Of a DNA stretch of 64,000 nucleotides, positions 40,338 to 59,363 are shown one piece after another. Both the position numbers and the translations under genes were made by a program. A model generated the notes under the pieces. That model worked only from the letters and a program-made list of their open reading frames with translations. It was not told the DNA's origin and ran no database searches. Origin of the DNA: Candidatus Hydrogenedentota bacterium (GTDB lineage Bacteria > Hydrogenedentota > Hydrogenedentia > Hydrogenedentales > SLHB01); the NCBI GenBank assembly GCA_963668025.2, contig CAXXTH010000023.1, positions 256,001 through 320,000 on the forward strand. The letters are read 5' to 3'. Numbering within the stretch: position 1 is the stretch's first letter; the number at the start of each line of letters is the position of its first letter.

Positions 40338-41723
40338 GTGCGACATGGATTCGGGAGGCTAGGCCAGATGAAACCGTATGGCAACAAGAGGATGGCATGG
40401 TATGGTGTCTGCCTGTTGGCATTCGCGCTTGCAGGCTGCCATGCTACAAACAGCACCATCCTGCTCGACCCGCAAGGGGAAGATATTACGGTGACGCCGG
40501 AGGAGATCCGCGAGTATAGCGGCCCAGACGCGCCTTACCTGCTGACCGTGGGCGACGAGGCGAATATCACATTCCGCGCGAAGGATTACCAATCCGACAA
40601 GCCGTCATGGGATTACCGCATCGAAGTCGGCGACAGCATGGAAGTCCGCCTGAGCGAAGAGATCGGCAGCCGTGCGGATTACAAGATTGACGCAGGCGAT
40701 CTTGTCGGCATCTCGTTCCTGAACAACTGGTCGCTCAATGTGACGCGCACGGTGCGCCCCGATGGGTATGTGACTTTCGAGAACATCGGCGATGTCATGG
40801 CGGGCGGTAAAACGGCCAAGGAACTCGAGGCGGAAGTCACCGAGTTATATAAACAAACGGGCCTCATCGAGGGTGATCCGAATATCTCGATCACCATCGA
40901 GTTCACCAATCCCGACCGGCTCGAGAATATGAGCCGCGACTTGGTGGTGCGTCCCGATGGTAAAATCCGCATCCCGGGCGTAAAAAATGATATCCAAGTA
41001 GCGGGCCTTACCGTGGATGAGGCGTGCAAAGCCGTGCAACAAGAATCCTCGACCATGCTGCGCAATGCCCCCGTGGTGAGCATGGTCATTTTCCCCTTCA
41101 TCAATAACGCCCTTGCGGCCATGAACGGCGTATATAAAGTGCGGCCTGACGGCAAAATCTCGATCCCCCGCATTGGCGATGTCCAGGTGGCGGGATATAG
41201 CACCGATGAAGTGCGCGAGGCGCTAGTGGACGCCTGCACGGGGCTGCTGCACAATCCGGTCGAGCCGGGAGTAACCGTCGTGACGGCCACCGGTGCCCGC
41301 ATCTATATAGGCGGCGAGGTGGACCGGCCAGGCGTGTATCCGCTCGAGGCGACGCCTACCGCCTTGCAAGCCATTATTATGGCGCAAGGCCCGAATGACC
41401 GTTCGAGGCTCAATAGCGTGCTTGTCATCCGGCGCAATCCCAATGGCAAGCCGTATGTCTTCAAGACCAACCTGCACCTGGCCTTCGAAGGCCATACGGA
41501 AAACGACATTGAGCTGCGCTCGTATGATGTCGTTTATGTGCCCAAGAAGCTGATATCGCGCGCGAACCTGTTCGTGAAGCAGTACATCGACGATATCGTG
41601 CCCTTCGACAATACGCTGGGCGTGACGGGCAGCTACTATATGAATGAGCAGCGCACGCGCTCGAAGGCCAGGACGTTCAATTATACGACGGGCGTTAATG
41701 TGATACCGGGCTTTAATCAATAA
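40338..41723 (+). CDS. Polysaccharide biosynthesis/export (Wza/GumB-like) lipoprotein
   Basis: Lipobox LAGC; repeated VRPDG.I...GD..VAG motifs; SLBB domain IYIGGEVDRPG; L.SYDVVYVP. Confidence 0.88.
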   Translation: MRHGFGRLGQMKPYGNKRMAWYGVCLLAFALAGCHATNSTILLDPQGEDITVTPEEIREYSGPDAPYLLTVGDEANITFRAKDYQSDKPSWDYRIEVGDSMEVRLSEEIGSRADYKIDAGDLVGISFLNNWSLNVTRTVRPDGYVTFENIGDVMAGGKTAKELEAEVTELYKQTGLIEGDPNISITIEFTNPDRLENMSRDLVVRPDGKIRIPGVKNDIQVAGLTVDEACKAVQQESSTMLRNAPVVSMVIFPFINNALAAMNGVYKVRPDGKISIPRIGDVQVAGYSTDEVREALVDACTGLLHNPVEPGVTVVTATGARIYIGGEVDRPGVYPLEATPTALQAIIMAQGPNDRSRLNSVLVIRRNPNGKPYVFKTNLHLAFEGHTENDIELRSYDVVYVPKKLISRANLFVKQYIDDIVPFDNTLGVTGSYYMNEQRTRSKARTFNYTTGVNVIPGFNQ

Positions 41724-41795: not shown

Positions 41796-43785
41796 ATGGA
41801 TCAGCGGCAGATTTTCTTGCGAGACATCCTGACCACACTGTTCAAACGGAAACTGTTTATTATCCTATTCGTCGTGGCGGTTTTCGCGCTGGTGTTCGTG
41901 GGCAACTATATATGGCCGCCCACGTACGAGTCCATGGCGAAGGTCCAAGTGACCCGAGGCCGGGGAAACGACGACCGTCGATGTGAGCGTGCTTGGGCAA
42001 AAAAATATGATGCCCACGCCGCAACTCTCGACATATGACGTAAACACTGTCATTGACCTCGTATATAGCAGCGATGTGCTGCGCAAAGGTCGTCCAAGAT
42101 ACCGGCCTTGCCGAGGGCATGACGGGTGGGATCATGCAGATGGTCCGGCGCAGCATTCGCGACTTGCAATATGTCTTGCGGTTCAAGACGCCTCCCGACG
42201 CGGTGTCGGAGGCCGCCGAAGAACTGCGTGACGCCATTTTTGTCGAGCCGGTAAAAGATTCGTATGCCTTGGATATTCGCGTACACATGGTCCGGGCTGA
42301 ACTTGCCAAAAAGTGCTCGAATCGCTTATTAAGCAATTCGAGTCCAAGCATAAAGAAGTCTACAGCACCAAAAAAGTCGGCGATTATTTTGATGAGCAGA
42401 TCATTCGCACAAAAGAACAGCTCGAAGCCTCGCAAAAGGCCCTCGAAGAGTTCCGCATCAAGAATTCCGTAGTTTCGCTCGATGCCGAGCGGGATCTGCT
42501 CGTGGATGAATACACCAAGGCCAAGAGGCTCCTCGATCAATTGACCCGCCTCGAGGCGACCGCCCAGGCTCTAGAGGGCGACGCCGCTGATCAAGCCATC
42601 ATGGAAGCGCTGTCACAGAAGACCGAGCACACCGTGGTGACGGAAATCCAGTTGCGCCTATTCGATAAAGTGGTCGAGCGCAACCAAATGGTGAAATCAC
42701 TGGGGCCGAAGCATCCCCGGGTCATTGGCATTAAGCAGGAGATTAGCGAATTAAACGTCCAATCTGCGCAACGCCATCACTAATGTGCGCAACGAGACCC
42801 AAGCGAAGATGGTGGATATTGACGCGCGCATGGTTGAAATCAACAAGCTGATAGGCGAGCTCGATAATCTCGTTCGGGAAGAGAAGCTGGCGGCGGACGC
42901 CTACGAGCTGTATAGCCAGCGCCGCGAGGAAGCCCGCGTCTATGACGCCATGAGCGAGCAAGGCATTTCCAGCATTCAGATCACCTCATCGCCCCACCTT
43001 GCCCGACAATCCAATCAGCCCCCGCCGCCTCTTCAATCTGTTCATGGCGCTCATTGGAGGATTTATCGGGGGATTGGCCATCGCGTTCTTTATCGATTAC
43101 CTGGATCATGGGCTCAAGACCCCGGAAGATGTCGAATACTACCTGAAAGTCCCACCCCTGGCGTCGTTCTGGCGTTCCTCCTATGACCAGCTCGATCCTA
43201 GCCAGACCCAGCGTTTGAGCGCCTTGTTCGAGCATGGAGAGGGCGTGGCCATGACCGTGGTGGCGAGTTCAATAAAAGGAGAAGGCTCTCTTCGCGTGGC
43301 GCGCGCGCTGGCGGAATCGCAGTCGGACGATCCGGACGCGCGTACGCTGCTGGTGGACTTCATGGGCGGACGGCCAAGATGAACGCCCTGGCGGGCGCGG
43401 CATTCTCGAAGTGCTCGAGGGTGAATGCAGTTTGCGGGACGTTATGGCGGAAAGCGGCAATCTATTGGTGGTCGGCCGGGGCAGCCGGGCGGAATGCCCC
43501 GCATACTTGTGGAAATCAGACCGCATGAAAGCCATGTTTGAAGGCCTGCGGGGTGATTTTGACCGGATCATCGTGCATGTGCCGCCCATTCTGGCGTCGC
43601 ACGACGCGTTGAACATGGCCCGGTATGCGGACAATATGTTATTGGTGATCAAAGCCGATAGCACCCGCCGGGAAGTGGTGCAGCGCGCCATGGACACCCT
43701 TGGCAATACGAGAAGTAAAGTGGTTGGGGCGGTGCTGATGGACCGCAAACAGGTGATCCCGCGGTTTGTGTATCGCTGGATCTGA
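41796..43785 (+). CDS. Wzc/GumC-like polysaccharide co-polymerase with degenerate kinase domain, split by frameshifts
   Basis: LRDILTTLFKRK-TM-PPTYES; coiled coil with GPKHPRV; PISPRRLFNL-TM-DYLDH; C-terminal P-loop-like domain ending VGAVL; spread over about six reading frames. Confidence 0.8.
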
Positions 43786-44120
43786 TAATGGCCGCTAACA
43801 GGTGTTTTTGGGGGGATCCGCCGAAGGTGGATTCCCCCAAGATGTTTATACGGGGAATGAAGGTTCGAGGCGGTCCTGGCACGCGTTTTTGTTTATAGCC
43901 TAGCCATTCCGGCGTTTGTTTCGTTATACTGGCCTTGCGGTTTGTTGTGCGGAAATGGCTGCCCTATCCAGGCGTTTTCCCATGAAATAGCCTGCACAAG
44001 AAGCAATCAGGAGCATGTTTTTGTGATGTTTTGCCTATTTGCTTGTAGATTACATCAAGTGGACTGGATATGCGCAAGAGGGCCGCGCCGAAATGTCTGT
44101 ACGCCCAGCGGAGGCAGCAA

Positions 44121-44710
44121 GTGACTCTCCCTGTACGAACAGACGAAGAGCTTATGTCTCAATTGCGGGATGGCGACTCCGCGGCGCTGGCTGAGCTGGT
44201 GCGCATATATCAGAACGATATTTTCCGGTTTTGTGTGCATTATGTAAAAGATGTGGAGCTGGCTCGCGAGATGGCGCAGGAAACATTCATACGGGTGTAT
44301 GTGGCCCGGGGGCGCTTTGATAGCGCCCGGAAGTTCCGCCCATGGCTCCTTGTGCATCGCGCGTAATTTGTGCTTGAATGAGATCAAGCGGCGAAAAACG
44401 GTTCCCATGGAATCGTTCGAGGAATATGTGGCCGCCGCTCATACGAATAGGGAAGAGCCGCTGGGTATGGCCAGCAGCGCTCCGGACACGGAACTCATGG
44501 CGCAGGAGCGCGAGGGAAATGCTCGCCGCCGCCATCGAAAGCCTGGATGCGGAGTCACGTGAAATCGTGGTGTTGCGCTTTTTTGAACAGCTTTCGGCGC
44601 GTGAGATTGCCGATATAGTGGGGGGGACGGAAGGGGCCGTGCGCACACGGCTTCACCGGATTTTGAAAGGGCTTCGCGACCGGTACGCCGGGGCGAAGCA
44701 GAATTTGTGA
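44121..44710 (+). CDS. ECF-family RNA polymerase sigma factor (two frameshifts in this sequence)
   Basis: TDEELM...GDSAALAELVRIYQ, AQETFIRV, FRPWL|IARNLCLN, REIVVLRFFEQLSAREIADIV...VRTRLHR; GGAGG RBS before GTG 44121. Confidence 0.88.
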
Positions 44711-46450
44711 TGAATACGACTGGGGACAATTATTTCGAGGAACTCGCCGCGCATCTCATGGGCGCGCTTTGAAGGTGGGCAATGCCGCGCCTTCGAGGAG
44801 AAACTGCGCCAATCAGAAGAGATGCAGGCGGATTATGCCTGGTTAAAGCAGCTTTTTGAAGATGCCCGCGTGTTAAAAGACGCTTATGAACGCGATCTTC
44901 CCGAAATGAACCTCGCTGATAACGTAGTGGCGATGGCCGCTTTGCGCGAGGAGACGGAATTTGGCGTGGACTATTCCCGTTTGGCGGATATAGCTTTAGG
45001 CCAGGCCTCGCCTTGGGATGAACAAGACGCCCTTGAAACGAGCCCGCATGCTTCGGCCTTGGACGCGGAAAAAGCTTGGGTGGAAGAGGTGGCGAACGGC
45101 TTAACCGGGCTTGCCTGTTCTTATAAGCAGACACTGCCGAAAATCGATATAACCGATTCTGTAATGCGCGCGATTGCAGGGGAAGCACATGCGGAGCCTC
45201 GAGTTTCTTTTCGCGCCCGCTTAATCTCGCGCCGTGCGAGAATCCTCTCCTGGGCCAGCCTGGCGGCGGCGGCTTCTATTCTCATGGCGGCTGGATTCAT
45301 TGCAAGCCTGATGCCGGATGGAGAGCTAGGCGCGCCAAAAGAGATGGCAAGCAATGTACATGGCAGCCATAATCCTCAAGACGTGCTGGCGGGCCTCTCA
45401 GAAGCATATGAAAACCTGCACAGGCCGTATTTGTCTGAGCCGAACACTATATTGGAAGAGGTTCCTGAGCCCGATATGAGCGCCTTGACGTTCACGCAAG
45501 TGGCTGATGCGGCGCGCAAATGGGGTTCTGATCCCGTTTCGCGGCGTCAAATACAGCAGTGGGCGGCTCTGACGGCGAATGAGGCCCGGTCCCTTATAGA
45601 TGGGGGGCAAGCGCCTGCCGGGGCGGTCATCGCGGCGGCGGCGTCATTGCCTTCTTCTGAGCAGGCAGCGGCGATGTATGCCGTTATCGGCTACCTCAAA
45701 GACCAGCCCGCCGCCCAATTCGCCCTGGCCCGCGCCCAACAGGAATCAAAACAAGCGCCGGAAGTCACGCAGAAAAGCTTGGAAACCTTGAGCGCGCTGG
45801 ACCCGGATAATGCGTTATCGTATTACTTGCAGGCGCGCATGCTGTTGGAAGCTGGAGACGTACAAGGGGCGCTTGAATTACTCGCCCAGGCCCGCCAGCT
45901 CGATTCCGCGACGGCGTACGGGCTCGACTCCGCGCGCTACACCGTGGAAGCGCTTCTCGCCAGCGGATTGGACATTGATACGGCGCGGATGCTGGCTGCT
46001 TTGACTGCGGGGGGTAAACAGTATGAATTTCTTTGCCAATTAGGATATAATCTGTTACAATATGGCCAATCTTTTGAGTCGGCAGGCGATTCAAGCACTG
46101 CGGAAGAGCTCTATCAGTCTGTCCAACGGCTTGGCGAGCAGTTGAATAATGGGGAAACGCTTGTACCGGAACGCCTTGCAGGGCTGGATATGGAACAAGC
46201 AGCCATCACGCTGATGTCTCAAGTATATACCTTGCTTGGGTCAATGGATGGATTGCAGACTCTGGCCACTGAGGCAGTGGAGCTTGTCAGCAGTTTGGAA
46301 TCGCTCAATGCGTTTGTGGAAAGCGTGGATGCGTTTTATGCGTCTGTAACCGATCTAAGCCTGTTCAACTCGTATGCGGATCAAGTGTTAGAGAATGGGC
46401 ATCGGTCCATGCTAGAGGCGTTCCGATCCGGCGCAAGTTCCGTAAGCTAG
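44710..46450 (+). CDS. Putative anti-sigma factor: cytoplasmic N-domain, TM helix, periplasmic TPR-like domain (frameshift near 44770)
   Basis: ATG overlaps the sigma stop (TGATG); MNTTGDNYFEELAAHLMGAL|E...FEEKL joins ORF 44822; TM WASLAAAASILMAAGF; LDPDNALSYYLQARMLLEAGD TPR motif. Confidence 0.7.
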
Positions 46451-46536
46451 ATAATCCAGGCGCAGTCCAATGAACAATAAGAATAGAAACACCGGCGCGG
46501 CCTGGCGGCCTGCGAGGCAAATGGATAATCTGTTAC

Positions 46537-46565
46537 TTGCGTCAACAATAGAAATAGTTCACAAT
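46537..46565 (+). promoter_or_regulatory. Possible promoter of the peptide array
   Basis: TTGCGT-17 nt-CACAAT, about 100 nt upstream of the first peptide. Confidence 0.35.
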
Positions 46566-46664
46566 AGAGTCCATTCGGTTGTAGCTTGCGGCAACGCAAG
46601 AGGCAATAGCGGTTCGGAGAGCTAAGTCAACACAAGTCGGAAGGAGAAGGGAGGTGAACGTAGA

Positions 46665-46817
46665 ATGAAGCACATCCACATGATGTCGGCGGTGAAGCCT
46701 GCCAAGGCGGAAGAGGTCGCATGGGTTCAACTGAAAGACCTCATCGGCTTTACAGCGATTACCAATCAGCAGAGCGAATGGCTTTCGTTGCAGTTGGACA
46801 ATTATCTTCAGAAGTAA
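46665..46817 (+). CDS. Short peptide 1 (50 aa) MKHIHMMSAVKPAKA-EEVAWVQLKDLIGFTAITNQQSEWLSLQLDNYLQK
   Basis: Translated by hand (below the ORF-track cutoff); strong RBS GGGAGGTGA; shared leader motif. Confidence 0.8.
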   Translation: MKHIHMMSAVKPAKAEEVAWVQLKDLIGFTAITNQQSEWLSLQLDNYLQK

Positions 46818-46973
46818 ACACGGAATCAGCTGAGTAGGCTGAGCCGTAGTGCGGAAGAAGAGACTAGGGGTAAACGCATCGCTGGCCATCCCTGGGCTCT
46901 CCTTGAATAGAGCACAACCAATTGAAGTGGGAAAAGCTGGCCAAGTACAGTATTCCGCGAAAGGAATCGGCAG

Positions 46974-47120
46974 ATGAAACACATCAAACCGGTAAACGAG
47001 AAGGCCATTCCGGCCCGCGCTAACATTTTTACTCTTGCGTTGGAAGCAATCGACAAGAGTGATTATCTCAGCGACCTTTGGAACCACGACGGCTCTTTGG
47101 ATCCTGAGGATATTTACTAG
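46974..47120 (+). CDS. Short peptide 2 (48 aa) MKHIKPVNEKAIPARA-NIFTLALEAIDKSDYLSDLWNHDGSLDPEDIY
   Basis: Translated by hand; RBS AAAGGA; shared leader motif. Confidence 0.75.
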   Translation: MKHIKPVNEKAIPARANIFTLALEAIDKSDYLSDLWNHDGSLDPEDIY

Positions 47121-47203
47121 TCACAGCGTGCGCGGGGCGGCCCTGGGCCGTCCCGTACGACATTGAGAAACCATAAGTTATCTGTGCAAGGAGGTGAAGA
47201 CCA

Positions 47204-47416
47204 ATGAAGCACATTACACATGTGACCAAGAAGTCCTCGGTTCCTGCGAAGGCGCAGGTTCTGAATAAAGGCAGTTGGGGTCAAGTTGGCAATTCGTGGG
47301 GCGGGCCGTTCATGGGCACGCTTGGTGCGAATACGCTCGGCGATATCGCTATCGGAATCGCCTCGGTGGCGGAAAAAGCGGGCCTGGTTACCGTGTTTCC
47401 GGACGAGATTCGCTAG
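47204..47416 (+). CDS. Short peptide 3 (70 aa) MKHITHVTKKSSVPAKA-QVLNKGSWGQVGNSWGG...
   Basis: In the ORF track; RBS AAGGAGGTGA; shared leader motif. Confidence 0.8.
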   Translation: MKHITHVTKKSSVPAKAQVLNKGSWGQVGNSWGGPFMGTLGANTLGDIAIGIASVAEKAGLVTVFPDEIR

Positions 47417-47467
47417 AACGTGGGTGGATGCAATGGGCGTCCGCTTTACATAAGGAGGCCGCAAACA

Positions 47468-47602
47468 ATGAAGCATGTAGTGGCAATTGCAAAAATGGTG
47501 CCTGCGAAGGCGGCATGCGATACCAGCCAATACAAAGCCCCTATCGGTTTACCGACCGTGGGTTACAACAGCCCGAAATCGGATTTTCGCGACGATTCCT
47601 GA
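47468..47602 (+). CDS. Short peptide 4 (44 aa) MKHVVAIAKMVPAKA-ACDTSQYKAPIGLPTVGYNSPKSDFRDDS
   Basis: RBS TAAGGAGG before ATG 47468; shared leader motif. Confidence 0.8.
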   Translation: MKHVVAIAKMVPAKAACDTSQYKAPIGLPTVGYNSPKSDFRDDS

Positions 47603-47674
47603 TGACTAGCAGGATGGGTTGCATTATCCGCTACAGCAATTGCCTATTGGCAAAATGCTGGCAATGAATCGTAT

Positions 47675-47713
47675 GAGCCGTAGTGGAAGGAGAATCGCTG
47701 CGGCTCTCTTTTT
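47675..47713 (+). terminator. Intrinsic terminator closing the peptide array
   Basis: GAGCCGTAGTG...CGCTGCGGCTC stem followed by TCTTTTT. Confidence 0.65.
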
Positions 47714-47743
47714 GTCTCTCGAACGAATCGAAATTGGCAGGCC

Positions 47744-48466
47744 ATGCGCAGATCCCGACGCATAGAATTTGAACCTGAATTATCCGCTCTTCTCGGTGGG
47801 CGCACCCGGCGTTTTAAGAAGAACGCGGTATTTCCTCGCTGGATGCTGGGTTTAGTCTTTTTGGCGGCTATAGCCGCCGGATATCTATTATGGGGGCATG
47901 TCTCCTGGCCTTCATTTTTGAGTTTTGATCCTGAAAAAAGGGAATTACTCGAAACAAATCGTGAATTGTGGAAAGCGCTGCAATCGAATAACCTTCCTGT
48001 CGCTGCGAATCTTTTCTTTGATGATGTTTCACCTGCTTCAAACGGCTCCGAGCCGCCTGCGTTATCCCCGGATACGCGTGAGATGCATTTGAGGATGCTC
48101 CAGACCGTGCGGGAGGATTTAACGAACGCGGGTATTGATTGGGCTTCTGCGTTGCCGGTGGCGTTTGCGGGTGTACGTGCGCGTGCGCTTGAACCAGGTA
48201 CGGAAGGCCAGGATGTATCGGTAGCCTTGGGCGAGCTATATATCCGCAGTCTGGATTCGCTTTTCGTTATCGAGCTCAGCACACGCTACAGCGGGAGTGC
48301 GTGCCAGATTGTCGAATTATGGCACTGGGGAAAATCTGATCAGGATCCAGCCGCGCTGCGTGAGTTGCCCGAATCGAAAAAACGTGAGTTTTTATCGGAG
48401 AATTTAGAACCGTCAACCGAGCAAATTCGCTTTGCGGATGTGCGTTCATTATTCGTTTCGTTTTAG
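47744..48466 (+). CDS. Hypothetical single-pass membrane protein
   Basis: 240 aa ORF; basic N-terminus followed by TM WMLGLVFLAAIAAGYLLW. Confidence 0.65.
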   Translation: MRRSRRIEFEPELSALLGGRTRRFKKNAVFPRWMLGLVFLAAIAAGYLLWGHVSWPSFLSFDPEKRELLETNRELWKALQSNNLPVAANLFFDDVSPASNGSEPPALSPDTREMHLRMLQTVREDLTNAGIDWASALPVAFAGVRARALEPGTEGQDVSVALGELYIRSLDSLFVIELSTRYSGSACQIVELWHWGKSDQDPAALRELPESKKREFLSENLEPSTEQIRFADVRSLFVSF

Positions 48467-48675
48467 CAAGATCCGCCGAGTTCACCATATCGCCTTGTAT
48501 TCCTTTTATGCGGATGGTTTCTCATTTCCGAATGCTAATGAAATTTCTTTTTGCCTTCTGATTTGGAGTAATATGGCCTGGATTCGGTGGCCGTTAAAAA
48601 GGACAGGCGATAAGGCCGGATAGAAGGGTTTGCCGCCTAATTGTCCTGGGATTCTGCAAGAAGGGGCCTGCACGC

Positions 48676-49158
48676 ATGATGAAAGTGGAATATATAAATC
48701 CATTCATCGAGTCGGTATATGAATTGTTCTCGACGATGCTCGGAGCTAAAGTATCCCGGGGAAAAGCGGCTATCGCGGAAGGAGAAGGCGAACCGAGCCA
48801 GGTGACCGCGCTCATTGGCTGGAGTGGGCCAGCCCGGGGAACCGTTGCGCTTACGCTTCCAGAGAGCACGGCGCTTGCTTTGGCGGGGCGCTTGCTGTCC
48901 ACTTCCATGGCCCAGGTGGATGAAGAGGTGTTGGACGCCATATCAGAGATCGTGAATATTATCGCAGGCGGGGCCAAGGCGAAATTCTCGGCCAGCCAAG
49001 GTATTGGAACTATCGATCTGAGCTTGCCCACGGTGATCACGGGCGCCCATTATGGAGTTGAGCATCCGTCGCATTCGACCGAAATCGAGGTGCCTTTCAT
49101 CTCGGAAGTAGGCCCGTTCAGCTTGCGCATTACTTTCGAGATGGTTCGCACAAGCTGA
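48676..49158 (+). CDS. cheX: Chemotaxis phosphatase CheX
   Basis: MKVEYINPFI, VTALIGWSG..RG, DAISEIVNIIAGGAK, LSLPTVITG. Confidence 0.9.
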   Translation: MMKVEYINPFIESVYELFSTMLGAKVSRGKAAIAEGEGEPSQVTALIGWSGPARGTVALTLPESTALALAGRLLSTSMAQVDEEVLDAISEIVNIIAGGAKAKFSASQGIGTIDLSLPTVITGAHYGVEHPSHSTEIEVPFISEVGPFSLRITFEMVRTS

Positions 49159-49182
49159 GCCGCTTTTGCTTTCGATGCAGTA

Positions 49183-49989
49183 TCACGCGAATCCTTGCAC
49201 CAATTGGCCGATGATGAGATGCCACCCATCCGCCAGGACGAACACGATAATCTTGAACGGGAGTGACACGAATATGGGGGGAAGCATCATCATGCCCATG
49301 GCCATTAGCGTGCTGGCGACCACCATGTCAATTACCAGGAATGGAATGTAAATGCGGAATCCGATCCAAAACGCCTTACTGAGTTCGCTCACCATGAAAG
49401 CGGGCATGAGCACGGTGGTGGGAATGTCTTCAAACGCATAATCGTCCGTCACATCAATTTTAGCGATGTTAATGAACAAGGCGAGGTCTTTTTCGCGTAC
49501 TTGCCGGAACATGAAATCCCGTATGGGCTCAAGCCCTGCCCGCACCGCATCTTGATAGCCAATCTCTTTATTCATGTATGGCGTGACCGCATTATCATAC
49601 ACTTGCTGGTAGGTGGGGCCCATGATAAAAAACGTCAGAAAAAGCGCAAGCCCCACGAGCACTTGGTTCGGCGGAGATTGCTGGGTGCCCATGGCCTGGC
49701 GTAAAAATCCCAGCACCACGATGATGCGCGTGAATGACGTGGTCATTATGAGTATGGCGGGAGCCAGGGATAAGACTGTCAGGATCAGAAAAACGAGCAG
49801 CGTCCCCTCGATTCGATCCGGCTGCGTCGCGTCCTGCAATCCCGTAAGGGCGCCACGAATCGCATCCGCGCCAGGAGGCGCAGGGGGCTGGCCTTCCGCT
49901 TGGGCGTAGGCGGATGCGCTGGCCAGGAAGAAAAGCGCCACTAGAAGCGCCAGCAATAGGGCGGATAGGGCGCTACGAGTTTGAATCAC
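49183..49989 (-). CDS. fliP: Flagellar export protein FliP
   Basis: LTVLSLAP.ILIMTTSFTRIIVVL..LRQAMGTQQSPPNQ, GMMMLPP..SLPFK; start uncertain (GTG 49989). Confidence 0.95.
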   Translation of the reverse strand: MIQTRSALSALLLALLVALFFLASASAYAQAEGQPPAPPGADAIRGALTGLQDATQPDRIEGTLLVFLILTVLSLAPAILIMTTSFTRIIVVLGFLRQAMGTQQSPPNQVLVGLALFLTFFIMGPTYQQVYDNAVTPYMNKEIGYQDAVRAGLEPIRDFMFRQVREKDLALFINIAKIDVTDDYAFEDIPTTVLMPAFMVSELSKAFWIGFRIYIPFLVIDMVVASTLMAMGMMMLPPIFVSLPFKIIVFVLADGWHLIIGQLVQGFA

Positions 49990-50827
49990 CACCAGATGTG
50001 TCCTTGAGGTATTGTTGAAGGCGCTTAATATCGCCGCGAAGCGCCGTGATGTCCGCATCATCGAGGGAACGGGGCGCTGGTTGCGGCGTGTCGTGGGCCT
50101 TTACGCGGCCAAGTAAAAATGACAGGAAACTCGGAGCGCCCGGTGTGGAAGGGGCGGGGCTTTCCGAACGGTTTTCTGTTGGCGGCACGGCTTCAGAGAT
50201 GTTCGTAGGCGCTGGCTCATTCAACGATTCTGCTTCATAGGAGGACGCTTCGAATTCAGAGACGAGCGATATATGGGATTGGGTGACGCCAATCACGAGC
50301 ACCCGTCCGCCGGTTCGGACAAAGTGGAGGCTGGCGCGCGGTTCAAGGTAAATCCGTCCGATCACTTGGCCTAAGCGCATACCGCCCAGCAGGGCTGAAC
50401 GCCCGCCCATAAGGCGGGGCGCGAAACGGCTGGCCAGGCGTATGCCGTAACCGGATAAGACGATCATCGCCAGTACAATCAAAAATGCGCCTAGCCATTG
50501 TAGAAAACCCCGCGTGGAACTTTGCGGCGCGTTCTGCTCGGTGGCGGCGGCGTTCCCGCCTCGGTTCTGGCCGTTGCGTATTTCCTCGCGCACCGCATTC
50601 ATTTTGGCGGCTTCGCGTTCCATGGTGTCTTTGAGGCTCTTCCCGTCTATATCGGGGACAGGCGGCGTCTCGGTTTGTTCCAGTTCGGATGAAGAGCCGA
50701 CGGCTTCTTGTGGAGAAGCAGGCGGGAGAGGCGCAGGCGTTTCCTCTTGAGCCATAACGCCTTGGGCGAATGCAGCAATAAAAACTAGCCAGGCTAACGC
50801 CGCGATGCTAATAATCCTCGTCCTCAT
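49973..50827 (-). CDS. fliO: Flagellar biosynthesis protein FliO/FliZ
   Basis: Signal/TM segments then VIGRIYLEPRASLHFVRTGGRVLVIGVT; lies between fliN and fliP. Confidence 0.8.
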   Translation of the reverse strand: MRTRIISIAALAWLVFIAAFAQGVMAQEETPAPLPPASPQEAVGSSSELEQTETPPVPDIDGKSLKDTMEREAAKMNAVREEIRNGQNRGGNAAATEQNAPQSSTRGFLQWLGAFLIVLAMIVLSGYGIRLASRFAPRLMGGRSALLGGMRLGQVIGRIYLEPRASLHFVRTGGRVLVIGVTQSHISLVSEFEASSYEAESLNEPAPTNISEAVPPTENRSESPAPSTPGAPSFLSFLLGRVKAHDTPQPAPRSLDDADITALRGDIKRLQQYLKDTSGGDSNS

Positions 50828-51197
50828 CCTCTTCTTCTTCCGTTTCTTCTGCCTTGTCTTCGGTGCCAATGATTTCCCCGATACGCACGTGCAGCGTATC
50901 GCCGATGACAACCACTTCCCCTCTGGCGAGGGGAAGCCCATTGATATAAATGTCGCTCATCTCTCCGGCCAGTTTATCGAGCTGTATAATGGAACCTCGT
51001 TTGAGCTCCAGTATGTCGCGTACAAACATGAGGGATTGGCCGAGATCCGCGGCAATCTGGAGGCACACTTGCCCCAAATCCTCGATATTCAAATGCTGTT
51101 GCGGCGGGCCGGCAACGAGCGTGTTATCGAGGTCTGGCATGGCTTGAGAGCCGCTGATGGTCTGACTGCTTTTTTTATCAGGATTTATCTCTCTCAC
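50808..51197 (-). CDS. fliN: Flagellar motor switch protein FliN
   Basis: SpoA domain ADLGQSLMFVRDILEL..GSIIQLDKLAGE...RGEVVVI. Confidence 0.88.
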   Translation of the reverse strand: MREINPDKKSSQTISGSQAMPDLDNTLVAGPPQQHLNIEDLGQVCLQIAADLGQSLMFVRDILELKRGSIIQLDKLAGEMSDIYINGLPLARGEVVVIGDTLHVRIGEIIGTEDKAEETEEEEDEDEDY

Positions 51198-51217
51198 GTC
51201 GTTGTTTCCATTGCTCT

Positions 51218-51742
51218 CTATTGATCAACCGCCAGGAATTCTTTGTGTGTGACTTTTAGGATGCGGTTTTCGGGATTTTTGCCGCCCTGGATTTGATCCA
51301 GTATTTCGCTACAGCGTAATAATGCTTGCTTTTGGATGTTTTTAAGCAGCATCGGATCATCAAGCTGTTCGCGGGTATGGTGGCTGTGGAGTTCGCGAAG
51401 CTCATCCACAAACCAAGCTTTATTGTTGGTGATAAGATCAGCGGTTGCTTGGTTGGAGCAGTAAAACGAAACGGCGTACATGACCAACGAGGCGGGCAGA
51501 TTGCTGCCTGGCGGCATAACCGCCGTGGTGCTGGCCGAATCAAAGTCTATCCACACGGCGGTAGGTGGAAACTCCGACAGCGCAGGATCAGGTTCTTTTG
51601 GTTTATCTGATAGCATGGGCGCCAGCACCATTTTGTACAATAGCAGCGCTACAATAGCCGCCGCGAGCCCTGCGGATCCAATCATGATGAGCAGGCGAAC
51701 AAGCGAAGAGGATTTCTTTTTGGATGCTGGTTCTTCTGACAT
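51218..51742 (-). CDS. fliL: Flagellar basal-body associated protein FliL
   Basis: N-terminal TM, size, C-terminal ILKVTHKEFLAVDQ, position after motB. Confidence 0.7.
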   Translation of the reverse strand: MSEEPASKKKSSSLVRLLIMIGSAGLAAAIVALLLYKMVLAPMLSDKPKEPDPALSEFPPTAVWIDFDSASTTAVMPPGSNLPASLVMYAVSFYCSNQATADLITNNKAWFVDELRELHSHHTREQLDDPMLLKNIQKQALLRCSEILDQIQGGKNPENRILKVTHKEFLAVDQ

Positions 51743-51748
51743 GCTGTC

Positions 51749-52573
51749 CTACCTTATTTCGTTGGCGTTGGTTCCAATATCGATATCAATGGGCGGGGGG
51801 CCTTTAGGGGCCTCGCCGCCGCCCAATTGGTTGACGCTATCTTCTATCTGTTTTTTCATCTCACCCGGAAATTCACCCCGAATGAACAAATCGACGCGCC
51901 GGTTTTTTTGCCGCCCTTCCTCGGTCTCGTTCGTGGCGATAGGCTGCGAGTCGCCACAGGCGATGGTCTCAAACGCATCTTGTTTGAGTTTTTCCGAACT
52001 GGCCAAAAATGACATCACTGCTTTTGCCCGATTATAGCTCAAATCTAAATTATCGTTGAATTGAGGGGCATTTCGCAATGGGCGATTGTCGGTATGCCCC
52101 CGCACCTCAATAAAGGCCCCAGGGGCTGGTGATAATACCGATGCAACTTGGTTGAGGATACTGCTGGCTTCCGGGAGCAACACGGCGCTGCTGGTATCAA
52201 AAAGGACATTGCTGGGAAGGCTAATCAGCACACCGCCTTGCTCATTATCCATGCCGACCTTAATTTCGCCTGCTAACGCCTTTACGTCAAGCATTTTCTG
52301 GAGGTCGCGGGCCATGCGCTGCATATCTTCCTTAGTGATACGCGATTGCTTGGCGCTAGGCGGCGAGGTGAGAAGCCCGAGCCCTCCTGGGAGCACGCCC
52401 AGTGCGCCGCGCAGAGAAGAAAGGGCCTCTTGAAACTCTTTCTCGTTTATGGAGGAGAAGGAGAGCAGTAAGATGAAGAAGGTGAGCAAAAGGCCCATCA
52501 TATCGCCATAGGTCACCATCCACCCTGGCGCGCCTTCAGGCTGGGCTTGTTCCTTTTTTTTCCGCTCCCCCAT
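51749..52573 (-). CDS. motB: Flagellar stator MotB
   Basis: WMVTYGDMMGLLLTFFILL; OmpA domain GHTDN...LSYNRA...NRRV. Confidence 0.95.
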   Translation of the reverse strand: MGERKKKEQAQPEGAPGWMVTYGDMMGLLLTFFILLLSFSSINEKEFQEALSSLRGALGVLPGGLGLLTSPPSAKQSRITKEDMQRMARDLQKMLDVKALAGEIKVGMDNEQGGVLISLPSNVLFDTSSAVLLPEASSILNQVASVLSPAPGAFIEVRGHTDNRPLRNAPQFNDNLDLSYNRAKAVMSFLASSEKLKQDAFETIACGDSQPIATNETEEGRQKNRRVDLFIRGEFPGEMKKQIEDSVNQLGGGEAPKGPPPIDIDIGTNANEIR

Positions 52574-52583
52574 ACTCAGCGCC

Positions 52584-53354
52584 TCACTTGCCGATGTGAA
52601 TGCGCGCCCGAATTGATGGCGCCACGAAGGCTTTCAGTTTTTGCTCGACCACCCGGGGATTATCTCCGGATTGAATGGATAATATACCTTCGATGATGAC
52701 TTCTTTAAGAAGCAATTCATTGCTTGTTCGGATTTTGAGTTTGCCAGCGGCGGGCAAACAGAACACATTTGCAATGAGGGAGCCGTATAAGGTGGTGATC
52801 ATGGCGGTGGCCATGCCTGCGCCGATGGAAGAAGGGTCATTCAGTGAGACAAGCATTTGAATAAGACCGATCAGCGTGCCGATCATGCCGAATGCGGGCG
52901 CATAAGTGCCCATGGCGATAAGGATGGATTGCCCCATGGCGTGCCGATCCTCCATGAAGGCGAGTTCCGTGGTTAATATGTCCTTGATCAGCTCGGGGGC
53001 GGTGCCATCAATGGCGAGCTGGATGCTATTTTCGAGAAAGGGATCTCCCGCATTGCTTGCGTGGCTTTCTAGGGCAAGTATGCCTTCTCGCCGGGCGATT
53101 GTGGCGAATTGAACCAGTTTCTCAATGACTTGTTGAGGAGCCAGCTCCCTCTGGAGGAATGCATTTTTAACGGAAGCTAACACATTGAGCAAATCGGATA
53201 AGGGATAGTTTATGAGCGTTACGGCAAGGGTGCCTCCACAGGTAATCAGAATAGAAGGAACATCAAAGAAAATTAACGGCGAACCGCCCATTATAATGGC
53301 TGATACGATTAAGCCCACCCCTGCGACTAAACCGATAAGTGTTGCGATATCCAT
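52584..53354 (-). CDS. motA: Flagellar stator MotA (PomA/MotP type)
   Basis: MDIATLIG, ARREGILALE, APAFGMIGTLIGL, TTLYG, IQSGDNP. Confidence 0.95.
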   Translation of the reverse strand: MDIATLIGLVAGVGLIVSAIIMGGSPLIFFDVPSILITCGGTLAVTLINYPLSDLLNVLASVKNAFLQRELAPQQVIEKLVQFATIARREGILALESHASNAGDPFLENSIQLAIDGTAPELIKDILTTELAFMEDRHAMGQSILIAMGTYAPAFGMIGTLIGLIQMLVSLNDPSSIGAGMATAMITTLYGSLIANVFCLPAAGKLKIRTSNELLLKEVIIEGILSIQSGDNPRVVEQKLKAFVAPSIRARIHIGK

Positions 53355-53466
53355 GTGTGCTATAACCTCGTATCAGAACTGGAGCTTCATCCCCTGCCAT
53401 CATGTTGGCCATTCTAACATCTCGCTTCCGCCGCCACAACGTTCCGAATGACTGTAGGTTAACGTT

Positions 53467-53504
53467 TAAAATAAAAAAGCCGGGAGGCGGCTGCCTCCCG
53501 GCTT
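53467..53504 (-). terminator. Intrinsic terminator after flgE
   Basis: Minus strand AAGCCGGGAGGC-agcc-GCCTCCCGGCTT followed by TTTTATTTT. Confidence 0.8.
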
Positions 53505-53526
53505 GAAAGCCGAATCTGTATGTGAA

Positions 53527-55140
53527 TTACCGGACCAAATTGACGGCTTCTTGCAGCAGCGTATCGGCGGTTGTGATGGTGCGGGCGTTTGCCTGATAGC
53601 CGCGCTGGGTGAGGATAAGGTTGCTAAACTCCGTGGCCAGGTCCACATTCGAGCTTTCGAGCGTGCCGCCAGCGATGGAGCCGCGCCCACCCGTGCTGGG
53701 CAGGCCGATTTGGGCTAGGCCTGAGGCGCTTGTTTCCGCGAATTGGTTGTCGCCCGTTCGGACCAGCCCGCCATTATTCGAGAAGGTGGCCGTGGCGACT
53801 TGCCCGACTACGCGGGTAAGGCCGTTCGAGTAAACAGCGTTGATGGTGCCGTCACTCGCGAAATCATAGCTCTCCAAAACGCCGCGAGGATAGCCGTTTT
53901 GGGAGAACACGTCGGCGTCGCTTGTGCCCGAAAGCTGTGTCAAATCACCAAAGTCGAAGGTGAATAGCAGCGGATCTGTGGGAACAGAGGCGCTAGTATC
54001 CACGAAATCAACCGAAACATTGCCCGTGCCGCCCGAGAGGATTTGGCCGTCCGTGCCAAAACGCAAGGTGCCGCCAGCCACTATCGAGCTAATATCCGTA
54101 TCCGAAACGGCGGGCGGGTCATAGGCGGTAAGATTGGTGTCGGACGCCACTTGTGTCATGAGCGAGAAATCCATGTCCATGTTTAATGTGGAACCATCCG
54201 TGAACGTGATATCCACCGTGCCAGTCGTTGTGCCCGAGATGCGGCCATTCGAAGGCGATGTGGAATCAAAGGTCACTGTCCCGCTGCCGGTAATGCTGGA
54301 GGTGGAATCAGCGCTCGATGTGGCATAACTCCAAGTATCCGCGGCGGTCTTTGTGAAGGTGAGGATCACGGAGCGTGTGGTGCCTTCGGAGTCGGTCACT
54401 TCGACGGAGCGTTCGACGGTGTCGCCCACGGCGGCGTCCGCATCCAGGTTGCCCACAAAGTCCGCTTGGTCGCCACTGGCGGCTTTCCAGGTCCATTCAT
54501 TGGTTTCAGGCGCCTTTACGAGCATCAACGTGACTTCCCGTTCCGTACCGAGTGAGTCATATACTTGGACTGTCCGTTCGACGACCGTGCCGACATCCGC
54601 ATCTGAATCCAAGTTTCCAGTGAAGTCTACATTGGAGGTGGCTTCGACAATAGCTGCGCCGCCAACGGGAATCTTGATGTTGGTGATGCCCGATGCGGTG
54701 TCGATCACCCCGTTTTCGTCGGCCAGATAGCCCTGGACATACTGCCCCGTGGAAGGCTCAATGAGATAGCCTTGTGAATTCACTTCGAATGAACCATCGC
54801 GGGTGTAAGTGAGCGAGCCGCCGTCGCTAAGCACGAAAAAGCCATTGCCTTCAATAGCGAGGTCGGTGCTGGTGCCGGTGGTGTTGTAGGAGCCGTTATT
54901 GAAATCGGTGCTGATCGAGCCAGTTTTTACGCCGAGGCCCACTTGTATGGCATTGGTGCCGCCATTGGTCCCGGACGCGCCGCTGGCTCCTTGAAGGGTC
55001 TGGTAGAACACGTCTTCGAATTGGACACTCGAGCTGCGATAGCCGGTCGTGTTGACATTGGCGATGTTATTCGCGATGACATCAAGGCTTTGTTGATGGG
55101 CTTGCAAGCCCGATAAGCCCGTAAATAATGCTGTTCCCAT
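53527..55140 (-). CDS. flgE: Flagellar hook protein FlgE
   Basis: GLSGL...DVIANNIANVNTTGY, DLAIEGNGFF, YTRDGSF, LESSNVDLATEF...QRGYQANAR. Confidence 0.95.
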   Translation of the reverse strand: MGTALFTGLSGLQAHQQSLDVIANNIANVNTTGYRSSSVQFEDVFYQTLQGASGASGTNGGTNAIQVGLGVKTGSISTDFNNGSYNTTGTSTDLAIEGNGFFVLSDGGSLTYTRDGSFEVNSQGYLIEPSTGQYVQGYLADENGVIDTASGITNIKIPVGGAAIVEATSNVDFTGNLDSDADVGTVVERTVQVYDSLGTEREVTLMLVKAPETNEWTWKAASGDQADFVGNLDADAAVGDTVERSVEVTDSEGTTRSVILTFTKTAADTWSYATSSADSTSSITGSGTVTFDSTSPSNGRISGTTTGTVDITFTDGSTLNMDMDFSLMTQVASDTNLTAYDPPAVSDTDISSIVAGGTLRFGTDGQILSGGTGNVSVDFVDTSASVPTDPLLFTFDFGDLTQLSGTSDADVFSQNGYPRGVLESYDFASDGTINAVYSNGLTRVVGQVATATFSNNGGLVRTGDNQFAETSASGLAQIGLPSTGGRGSIAGGTLESSNVDLATEFSNLILTQRGYQANARTITTADTLLQEAVNLVR

Positions 55141-55210
55141 TCTGATTTCCTCCATGCGCCGCATCGGTCATTCAGCGGTGCTTAAGCCTCCCCCGTGGGG
55201 GTCCGGCGGT

Positions 55211-55648
55211 TCATTCCATTGTTTCTGTTGCCGTGGACGCTTTTGCGACCACGACGGCGCTGTCGATGTTCGTGAAGACCGTATCCGCGGTTTCACCGCG
55301 TGGCACGGCCGTTATGATGGTTCTGTTGGGCACGCTGGCCACCAGCGACAAGCCGTCCATGATGAGCAGCGATTCTTTCGAGCCTTTGGCCGCGGCTTCA
55401 TCCAGCGCCCTTGCAATGTCGGCATGGTCGCTGGCGTCGAGGGCGATGCTGCGCTGCACCATGCGCGCGGCGGCATGGGCGGAGAAACGGATGCTCTCCC
55501 TGTTATTCGTATCTGGAGTATCCGAGGGCATAGCCTCGCCGAGGACGCTCGAGAACGAAACGCCTTTGGGCGCAGACCGGTTTCCTGTTGGAGTCCGGGA
55601 GGCGTTATCCCGGATGTTCTTGGATTCGAGTTGTATTTGAGCGACCAT
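55211..55648 (-). CDS. TIGR02530-type flagellar operon protein
   Basis: IRFSAHAAARM..R, AAAKGSKESL, SVPNRTIITA, VFTNIDSAV. Confidence 0.9.
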   Translation of the reverse strand: MVAQIQLESKNIRDNASRTPTGNRSAPKGVSFSSVLGEAMPSDTPDTNNRESIRFSAHAAARMVQRSIALDASDHADIARALDEAAAKGSKESLLIMDGLSLVASVPNRTIITAVPRGETADTVFTNIDSAVVVAKASTATETME

Positions 55649-55652
55649 AGGC

Positions 55653-56285
55653 TTACTCGATCAGTTGAATATCGTCCACGGCGATGGCTTGTTCGCCTAC
55701 GCAGGCGTACGCCACACCATCAGATAAATAAATGCTCTCCACTTCGCCGTTGACGGTTTCTCCCTCCGTATCCGTTCCATAAATGTTTTTTCCAATCAGA
55801 TTACTGGCGCTTACTAGATTTTGCTGGGTCATCGTGGCGGACAACTCTTCAAAGCTCTCATTGAGGTTGGTCATTTGTTCGAGCGCGGAGAATTGGGCCA
55901 GATTGGCGATCATATCCTCATTACTCACCGGATCTAGCGGATCTTGGTATTGCATCTGCGTCACGAGAAGCTGGAGGAATTCATCTTTCCCTAGTTCTGT
56001 GTTTGTGCTTGTTGTTGATGTGGTGTCCGTGTCGGAATCCGTACTTTTTGTCTCGGATGTACTTTTTGTTCCGGATGTACTTGATGAAGAGGAACTATTT
56101 GTCCTGGAGAGGCTCTTTTTTGCTTCTTCAGAAAGGACTTCCTCGGTTTCAGGCTTTTTGCCCTGCAAGCCTCGCAATGTGGCGTTCATGTTTGCCAAGA
56201 GCTTCTGTTGGACTTCTTGCCGCTCTCGTGAAGTGGGGCTTAGCGTGCCGGCCACATTGGAGCGGAATTGCACTAGTGCATTCAT
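55653..56285 (-). CDS. flgD: Flagellar hook capping protein FlgD
   Basis: LGKDEFLQLLVTQMQYQDPLDP...LAQFSALEQMTNLN. Confidence 0.95.
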   Translation of the reverse strand: MNALVQFRSNVAGTLSPTSRERQEVQQKLLANMNATLRGLQGKKPETEEVLSEEAKKSLSRTNSSSSSSTSGTKSTSETKSTDSDTDTTSTTSTNTELGKDEFLQLLVTQMQYQDPLDPVSNEDMIANLAQFSALEQMTNLNESFEELSATMTQQNLVSASNLIGKNIYGTDTEGETVNGEVESIYLSDGVAYACVGEQAIAVDDIQLIE

Positions 56286-56343
56286 GGCATGTTCCTTTCC
56301 TTTCCAGAGACGCCGGATTTCTGATGAAATCTGAGGCGTCTAG

Positions 56344-59214: not shown

Positions 59215-59363
59215 TTGTTTCACCTCCTTTCCAGGTAGATGGTGAGAACGGTTTCGATGCGCACTCCGTTCATGCGCGGATGGGGTGTGATGGAAATACA
59301 ACGATGGATTGGTCTGAGTATTCTTGGCATGGCTGGGGCGGCCATGTTACGACGAGGGAGGGA

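Follow-up and report, generated by a model that had tools for sequence, protein, structure and literature searches.

An array of four small tag-bearing peptides in a Hydrogenedentota genome and a candidate RiPP-like processing cluster encoded elsewhere

In a 64,000-nucleotide stretch of a Candidatus Hydrogenedentota genome (GenBank assembly GCA_963668025.2, contig CAXXTH010000023.1, positions 256,001 to 320,000 of the forward strand; hereafter the window, with positions counted from its first letter), four consecutive open reading frames (ORFs) of 44–70 aa are encoded between 46665 and 47602, each with its own Shine-Dalgarno sequence and with one terminator-like hairpin closing the array. This arrangement had been described in an earlier, model-made reading of the letters alone (the sequence-only reading) and was borne out here. 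The four ORFs are genuine genes and members of a Hydrogenedentota-wide family of small precursor-like peptides (about 30–75 aa), united by an N-terminal tag of the form MKH-[IVL]-x-x-[IVLM]-[ST]-…-P-x-x-A. With moderate confidence, the window peptides are read as satellite precursors resembling those of ribosomally made peptides with post-translational modifications (RiPPs) and handled in trans; the first 14–17 residues (M-K-H-φ-x-x-φ-S/T-…-P-x-x-A) would constitute a recognition tag (leader), and the remainder a paralogue-specific core.

The tag and the peptide family

Each of the four window peptides opens with MKH[IV] and has a PA[KR]A whose final Ala falls at residue 15–17. In an alignment of the ten copies from this genome, M1, H3, P12 and A15 were the only invariant residues and nothing could be aligned past the tag Ala; His3 was invariant in 56 of 56 aligned members, with position 2 being variable (K or R; also Q, S, V and M in looser sets). 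As in RiPP precursors, a conserved leader (M1, H3 and P12 invariant, K2 and A15 near-invariant) thus precedes a distinct core, and paralogues lack similarity past the tag Ala. A total of 199 non-redundant tag-type ORFs (29–75 aa, median 50) were gathered by pattern from the loci, a pattern which itself fixes part of the tag composition, so that the following figures describe the family and do not test it. P-x-x-A fell within residues 9–22 in 161 of the 199, A-x-A alone was seen in 24 and neither in 14; the tag motif ended at residue 14 or 15 in 142/185, position 8 was Ser or Thr in 96%, and position 9 was Lys or Arg in 62%. The leader had been put forward as MKH(I/V)…PA(K/R)A: the tag is real and the window copies fit this wording, but across the family the tag ends in P-x-x-A, with A-x-A in its place in one subtype.

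Six-frame translation of the genome, 12.29 million residues, gave seven matches to the strict motif M[KR]H[IVLM]-x4-14-PA[KR]A, all of them at the start of 44–70 aa ORFs, each with a Shine-Dalgarno sequence, while six motifs with permuted residue order gave 0, 0, 0, 0, 1 and 1 matches. No protein of more than 70 aa in this genome bears the strict motif. Differences in the tag codons among the four copies are mostly synonymous (AAG/AAA, CAC/CAT, ATC/ATT, CCT/CCG, GCC/GCG), indicating conservation at the protein level. The ratio of nonsynonymous to synonymous differences per site (pN/pS), which the sequence-only reading had proposed for comparing leader and core, was below 1 in both parts in three orthologue groups (tag/core 0.42/0.53, 0.44/0.55 and 0.38/0.77; rough values, pS being near saturation), the first pair coming from 19 non-identical orthologues of peptide 1.

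The tag was also compared with known leader types. It lacks the hydrophobic h-region of a Sec-type signal peptide, the gap of 7–9 residues between MKH and Pro holding the conserved Ser/Thr at 8 and Lys/Arg at 9, and no Gly-Gly is present at the tag end as in double-glycine leaders, in agreement with what had been claimed from the letters. No Pfam or NCBIfam match to a Nif11 or NHLP leader was obtained.

Searches by motif and hidden Markov model (HMM), as the sequence-only reading had suggested, extended the family considerably. This genome holds about 20 tag-bearing small ORFs: a small HMM added three looser copies to the seven strict ones, and a later, independently built HMM about eight more. 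A profile of the genome's ten copies matched 39 of 41 related genomes (E ≤ 1), and with a 56-sequence profile matches were obtained in 85 of 135 genomes from the phylum (E ≤ 0.001) and in 0 of 5 genomes from other phyla (E ≤ 1). Searching a protein collection of 5.8 billion clusters with the 56-sequence profile gave 42 proteins (E ≤ 10); none has a Pfam domain, and each, where any name was given, is a "hypothetical protein" of Candidatus Hydrogenedentes. The four window peptides themselves have no Pfam match and no NCBIfam match at E ≤ 1, and the portions of the literature consulted on Hydrogenedentes RiPPs and on precursor peptides associated with SPASM, GNAT or CPBP proteins contain no description of the family. 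These observations suggest that the tag peptides form an undescribed family, as had been supposed.

Tag-bearing ORFs were seen in several other settings. Locus L031 (G005:C1, about 111300–115000) holds an array of five tag peptides of 31–39 aa whose cores are Lys/Pro-rich repeats (…KPVKPK…), unlike every other core seen. At seven loci in six genomes (L002, G000:C18:281839; L004, G000:C10:1116874; L037; L040; L132; L156; L168), a tag peptide with an "E-S/N-L-L…" helical core lies directly 3' of a phosphate-selective porin O/P gene, in one case preceding phoU. A two-Cys tag peptide is followed at five to six loci (L003, G000:C18:440069; L038; L134; L137; L158; L160) by a leucine-rich repeat (LRR) lipoprotein and giant VWA/BACON-domain proteins, and several of these loci have a sigma-54 enhancer-binding protein with a GAF domain nearby. 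Loci L005 (G000:C17:686054) and L006 (G000:C17:873624) carry one tag peptide just downstream of a 1,602-aa nonribosomal peptide synthetase (C-A-T-TE) and another between AtpI/AtpZ-like genes and an ABC-2/GldG-like transporter. Finally, a 54-aa tag-like ORF at G000:C24:31104 (+) has seven Cys in its core and is the sole Cys-rich member seen in the genome; no radical-SAM gene lies within 5 kb of it.

The candidate processing cluster and P0043

When neighbours of tag-bearing ORFs from 55 loci were grouped, a recurring operon was found 3' of the peptide arrays in four genomes, consisting of a GNAT protein, an Rce1-like/CPBP protein, an ABC ATPase, an ABC-2-like permease and a 648-aa protein ending in a GNAT domain (Pfam). 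tblastn with the proteins of a relative located one co-linear copy in this genome (contig C17:581985-588332), encoding two stand-alone GNATs, a CPBP/Rce1-like protease, a DrrA-like ABC ATPase, an ABC-2-type permease and a 642-aa protein designated P0043, with two tag-bearing ORFs, one of 38 aa, just upstream. The expectation that the machinery is encoded away from the array is therefore plausible, as the genome contains a candidate cluster with peptides of its own that bear the same tag. Of the partners that the sequence-only reading proposed to look for (peptidase, transporter, radical-SAM enzyme), a CPBP protease, an ABC-2 system and a homologue of the maturase CteB were found, but an intact radical-SAM partner adjacent to the peptides was not: the genome has seven SPASM-domain matches, none adjacent to a tag ORF and the nearest 5–11 kb away, and this candidate was set aside.

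The CPBP protease matches PF02517 at 1.3e-12 and 2.6e-09, has a tblastn match in 18 of 20 cluster loci, and is matched weakly by the models for myxosortase, MroQ and MrtJ; the 210-aa stand-alone GNAT resembles amine N-acetyltransferases. The best NCBIfam matches of P0043 are to the SCIFF maturase (6e-20), PapB, QhpD and nif11-type models, mainly over the SPASM part and all far below cut-offs, that to TIGR03974 reaching 71.5 bits against a curated cut-off of 425. A profile of 24 P0043 family members aligned to PDB 5wgg_A ("Radical SAM domain protein"), which we take to be CteB, at E = 5.7e-52 (positions 4–435 against residues 5–445). A review (PMC8326336) describes the N-terminal RiPP recognition element (RRE) of CteB as binding the CteA leader as a beta-strand, and the alignment of P0043 with CteB begins at residue 4, covering the RRE region. 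The CNLRCKYC of CteB faces non-cysteine residues in the P0043 family, and CxxxCxxC is present in 0 of the 24 members. The family keeps four Cys in the SPASM part as well as a CxCxxC close to the N-terminus; the last ~150 residues resemble acetyltransferases of the RimL/RimJ type, with matches at about 1e-6. As judged by sequence, P0043 is a homologue of CteB over the RRE, barrel and SPASM regions that has lost the radical-SAM cluster and carries a fused GNAT domain; because it is a maturase homologue lacking the cluster and fused to a GNAT, a role as recognition scaffold for acylation is proposed.

The C-x-C-x-x-C lies at residues 24–29 of P0043 (L172, G000:C17), in the RRE-like domain. It is kept in 21 of 24 members, two of the exceptions retaining two Cys and one none, and has no counterpart in the aligned CteB; it is possibly a metal site.

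The cluster is tied to the tag by position, by similarity and by co-occurrence. Directly upstream of its first GNAT gene, one to five tag-bearing small ORFs are found in 18 of 20 loci (20 genomes, eight families); at the other two, none was seen (L179) or the cluster is different or incomplete (L188). An HMM built only from 60 cluster-adjacent tags of other genomes ranked the cluster's own peptide first in this genome, and window peptides 1–4 ranked 3rd, 6th, 12th and 23rd of the N-terminally anchored hits (330,225 small ORFs). P0043 orthologues were detected in 123 of 135 genomes, mostly with one match per genome, and the tag (search at E ≤ 0.001) in 84 of the 123 genomes with P0043 as against 1 of the 12 without. 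Within one family (f3), four of the five genomes with P0043 have the tag and one of the nine without has a marginal match (E 0.93). An RRE-bearing protein, enzyme or scaffold, therefore co-occurs with the precursors, as in RiPP systems, and would act in trans on the window peptides.

In the proposed pathway, the RRE-like domain of P0043 would bind the tag of both cluster-encoded and satellite peptides, one or more GNAT domains would acylate a core amine, the tag would be cut off at P-x-x-A or close to it, the membrane CPBP protease being the leading candidate for this step, and the ABC-2 system would export the product. CPBP cleavage and ABC-2 export are proposed because of the gene content of the cluster, the CPBP step leaning also on the precedent of MroQ (see below).

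The window array and its neighbourhood

The features of the array and of the gene pair upstream are collected in Table 1. Past the tag, the core of peptide 1 is of an amphipathic type with Trp (AWVQLKD … WL … DN-x-LQK), that of peptide 2 is acidic with an (S/T)-L-D-P-x-D-like C-terminal end, that of peptide 3 is Gly/Trp-rich with an N-x-L-G-D-I motif and a hydrophobic stretch, and that of peptide 4 is Pro-rich with a single Cys. An alternative start for peptide 4, an in-frame GTG at 47420, would give 60 aa. Two of the ORFs had been noted as absent from the ORF track, which fits a 60-aa cut-off, as the 50- and 48-aa ORFs fall below it.

Table 1. Features of the peptide array and of the upstream gene pair (window positions)
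Feature	Position	Strand	Description
ECF sigma factor gene	44139..44710	+	three frames (two frameshifts); Pfam Sigma70_r4_2 on last piece
Anti-sigma-like membrane protein	44822..46450	+	one transmembrane segment; long C-terminal domain with weak TPR matches
Putative sigma-70-like promoter	-35 TTGCGT 46537-46542, 17-nt spacer, -10 CACAAT 46560-46565	+	sequence motif
Purine-rich block GGAAGGAGAAGGGAGGTGA (tandem Shine-Dalgarno)	46639..46657	+	19 nt; 7 nt 5' of peptide 1 ATG
Peptide 1 ORF	46665..46817	+	50 aa; tag residues 1-15 (46665-46709)
Peptide 2 ORF	46974..47120	+	48 aa; tag residues 1-16 (46974-47021)
Peptide 3 ORF	47204..47416	+	70 aa; tag residues 1-17 (47204-47254)
Peptide 4 ORF	47468..47602	+	44 aa; tag residues 1-15 (47468-47512)
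Intrinsic-terminator-like hairpin and T-run	47675..47716	+	12-bp stem; array end

Upstream of each ORF lies a purine-rich Shine-Dalgarno sequence, the weakest being that of peptide 2 (AAAGGAA). When the 200 nt upstream of peptide-1 orthologues were aligned, the block GGAAGGAGAAGGGAGGTGA was near letter-perfect across 14 loci of different genera, and a TTGCxT / ~17 nt / (C/T)A(C/G)AAT pattern was kept in the 14 loci, so that the putative promoter of the array is, by its motif, sigma-70-like; the predicted transcription start lies near 46572. A promoter dependent on an extracytoplasmic function (ECF) sigma factor was considered and not retained: the conserved motif is sigma-70-like with no obvious ECF-type motif, although the sigma factor's own motif was not searched for. 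At the 3' end, the 118-nt region with the terminator hairpin has a folding z of -3.9, with 0 of 200 shuffles folding as well, and stable hairpins also lie 3' of ORFs 2 and 3. Searched at gathering thresholds, the window gave no Rfam family.

Two copies of the 13-nt string TGAGCCGTAGTG are present: one (46840–46852) lies at the 5' base of the hairpin region that follows peptide 1, the other (47673–47685) at that of the terminator closing the array.

The cores had been described as variable, which holds among paralogues, but those of peptides 1, 2 and 3 have conserved-core orthologues, in the same order, in related genomes. There, type 1 reads AWV-x-LK-[DN] … WL … DN-x-LQ, type 2 has a Trp-rich start followed by LDP-x-D, and type 3 has G-x-NE-[LI]-G-D or TDIVVVIG. 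Twelve orthologues of peptide 2 were aligned, with many more of its type in the protein database; peptide 3 has a close relative (P0033) in the database, and related loci carry its core type at the third position. For peptide 4 no same-core orthologue was identified, and related arrays bear other cores at positions 4–6, which vary among loci; peptide 4 is a variable, lineage-specific position of the array.

Directly upstream of the array, in the window and in eight of the loci of a first comparison, lie the genes for an ECF sigma factor and an anti-sigma-like membrane protein with an extracytoplasmic TPR-like domain. A first scan of contigs with the anti-sigma protein found no relative, and an alignment of the sigma factor was used to find loci instead. 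The order sigma, anti-sigma, peptides 1-2-3 was co-linear in 16 of 62 sigma-orthologue loci: 13 of these are among the 45 loci whose downstream sequence reaches 3 kb or more, and three are shorter. No peptides were present behind the pair in 31 of the 45 full-flank loci, nor behind more distant orthologues of the pair, the latter observation indicating that the array joined an older sigma/anti-sigma pair in one lineage. In the window, tblastn against an intact orthologue placed the sigma gene in three pieces (44139–44351, 44350–44511 and 44516–44707), and the true start of the anti-sigma gene is probably near 44711 in another frame; these frame breaks (near 44350 and 44512, and at about 44711–44830) reflect either a pseudogene pair or assembly indel errors. 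The sigma-70-like promoter, the strong ribosome-binding block and the position behind the ECF sigma/anti-sigma-TPR pair together make a signalling or envelope-related role of the window products plausible.

Parts of the stretch are contained in 23 public runs, 10 of them recorded as RNA; most of the 23 are labelled as wastewater or sludge metagenomes. When contigs of four RNA libraries from four studies were compared with 43800–49400, all matches fell on 46596–47607: an 817-nt contig with five differences (46794–47607) spans peptides 2–4, and a 555-nt contig with adapter sequence at its 5' end (46596–47116) and two shorter contigs were also found, peptide 1 being covered as well. In one contig of about 90% likeness, the differences keep frame and motif (S8T, A13V, synonymous). 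The flanks (43800–46595 and 47608–49400) have no contig in the four RNA runs, a result which cannot rank expression.

Downstream of the array, a 240-aa membrane protein (47744–48466) has no Pfam or NCBIfam family; because it lies behind only one other array, it was not counted as part of the system. Further away, at 48676–59301, a CheX-like phosphatase gene on the + strand is followed by a flagellar block on the - strand (fliP, fliO, motB, motA, flgE, flgD and a fliK-like gene); no link of these genes to the peptides was seen in other genomes. On the other side, at 42313–43785, behind a polysaccharide-export gene (40338–41723), the ORFs 42313–42783, 42785–43186 and 43276/43411–43785 resemble pieces of one Wzc-like tyrosine-kinase/P-loop gene, with weak Pfam evidence (RapZ-like_N), and the stretch may hold further frameshifts.

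Alternative explanations and known systems

Several observations weigh against the proposal that the window peptides are leader-bearing precursors handled by the C17 cluster. Binding, acylation, cleavage, export and biological role are inferred for every member of the family, and because P0043 lacks the radical-SAM cluster its chemistry cannot be that of CteB, the GNAT chemistry being a guess. Only the tag is common to the peptides, their cores showing the conservation of ordinary small proteins, and a docking or regulatory tag that stays uncleaved would suit the data just as well. A likeness of the N-terminus to that of SCIFF precursors was considered and was not confirmed by the SCIFF HMM, by the literature and by PDB sequence searches with the tag profile and a 21-aa tag, which returned no CteA chain. 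The window array lies on another contig than the cluster with no adjoining enzyme or transporter, so that the shared tag and co-occurrence are what ties the two together. The co-occurrence counts, in turn, are phylogenetically non-independent, 9 of the 12 genomes without P0043 belonging to one family and possibly reflecting one or two losses; genome G102 (88% complete) has tag matches and no P0043 match, and the small profile (E ≤ 1) gave no tag match in genome G034, which has P0043. Beside the cluster of G034, three tag-bearing ORFs were later found by pattern, which indicates that profile searches miss members. Lastly, RNA libraries may contain DNA, and the contigs recovered from them are no proof of transcription.

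Two alternative explanations concern the tag itself. It is unlikely, though worth weighing, that the tag is retained as a functional module of small cytoplasmic proteins, for example as a docking tag for P0043, a degron or an X-X-His Cu/Ni site formed by Met-Lys-His. An invariant His3 with a variable position 2 is the pattern expected of such a site, the ATCUN motif being an amino-terminal X-X-His site, and Lys at position 2 should block removal of Met1; the evolution of the cores in the manner of ordinary conserved small proteins also fits a retained tag. However, retention leaves unexplained the equally conserved P-x-x-A and the sharp loss of similarity after the Ala, as well as the protease and exporter of the cluster, and gives no account of a leader-binding maturase homologue travelling with the peptides. 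Somewhat less credible still is a minimal signal peptide, by which small envelope or secreted proteins would pass through Sec or YidC and be cleaved behind A-x-A by signal peptidase I, without a dedicated maturase. The tag end does resemble a signal-peptidase c-region (among 185 tags anchored on the motif, 87% have Pro at -4, 61% Ala at -3 and 100% Ala at -1, figures that are hence partly circular), the N-terminus is basic (MKH, with K/R at 5 and 9), and several copies lie beside envelope genes (phosphate-selective porin, LRR lipoproteins, ABC-2 transporters, an anti-sigma with an outside domain). Yet the ordinary signal peptides of this genome, such as porin N-termini, have a normal h-region, which the tag lacks; its confinement by the strict motif to proteins of at most 70 aa would be unexpected for a general export signal, and it co-occurs with a dedicated cluster.

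The other two explanations concern the array. There is a small chance that the peptides have a local role only, serving the ECF sigma/anti-sigma (TPR) pair as ligands or partners, for instance in an autoinducing loop, with the likeness of the tag reflecting ancestry without shared processing. This would be consistent with the conserved gene order in 16 of the 62 sigma-orthologue loci and with the common binding of peptides by TPR domains, but the pair is older and mostly without peptides (31/45 full-flank loci), the array promoter has no obvious ECF-type motif, the sigma gene here lies in three frames and tag peptides occur in many other contexts. An origin of the ORFs by chance, as open frames in non-coding or antisense sequence, is hardly tenable: although they are very short and overlapped by longer ORFs of the opposite strand (46542–47087 and 47117–47530), this explanation is contradicted by orthologues with conserved frame, synonymous change, pN/pS below 1, Shine-Dalgarno sequences, the motif statistics and the frame-preserving differences in RNA-library contigs.

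Beyond the handling of satellite precursors in trans, a fuller scheme is advanced tentatively and may well be wrong in parts: an undescribed, phylum-wide RiPP-like system in which a dead CteB homologue would serve as leader-binding scaffold, the fused GNAT would acylate, CPBP would remove the tag and ABC-2 would export, with one cluster serving about 10–20 scattered precursor genes per genome, some of which, including the window array, would be wired as signals to an ECF sigma/anti-sigma-TPR sensor. If so, a new precursor-peptide family with its processing cluster would be added in an uncultivated phylum. A radical-SAM maturase without radical chemistry, apparently a recognition scaffold fused to an acyltransferase, would be relevant to RiPP enzymology, and genome-mining rules keyed to the radical-SAM motif would miss such maturases. 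The pattern-searchable tag would allow dozens of unannotated small genes per genome to be annotated at once, and an array fixed behind an ECF sigma/anti-sigma pair would offer a testable link of small peptides to envelope signalling.

Among known systems, the SCIFF/ranthipeptides (CteA/CteB; TIGR03973, TIGR03974) share with this one the homology of P0043 to CteB over the RRE, barrel and SPASM regions and the encoding of short leader-bearing precursors beside the maturase homologue. Unlike the SCIFF maturase, P0043 lacks CxxxCxxC, is fused to a GNAT and would not be expected to perform radical chemistry; the SCIFF precursor has about six Cys in ~45 residues, whereas the window peptides have 0, 0, 0 and 1, and a scan of the whole genome with TIGR03973 returned none of these ORFs and one unrelated match at E 5.5. 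The cluster here also differs in having a CPBP protease, extra GNATs and an ABC-2 exporter. A CPBP/Rce1-like protease encoded in the cluster is reminiscent of CPBP proteins of bacteriocin loci and of MroQ, which matures AgrD and is reported to remove the N-terminal leader from this signalling peptide (NCBIfam NF046050); in contrast, the MroQ and myxosortase matches are far below cut-off here (14.5 vs 270 bits), and no AgrB-like gene was seen in the cluster. Among GNAT-acylated RiPPs, which include N-acetylated or fatty-acylated peptides such as selidamides, the parallel is the presence of several GNAT domains, one of them fused to the putative leader-binding scaffold and all of predicted activity, while the tag peptides lack an NHLP/Nif11 leader. 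With Sec/signal peptidase I signals the tag has in common a basic N-terminus and a Pro / small-x-small (A-x-A) end, but it is without a hydrophobic core and occurs in this genome only on peptides of at most 70 aa. In overall organization, the system recalls that of the prochlorosins, in which one maturase serves many scattered precursors with a common leader: here about 20 scattered tag ORFs with diverse cores and one leader stand against a single candidate maturase cluster. The leader is a different one (no Nif11/NHLP match), there is no lanthionine synthetase, and the cores, rather than being hypervariable, are conserved between genera.

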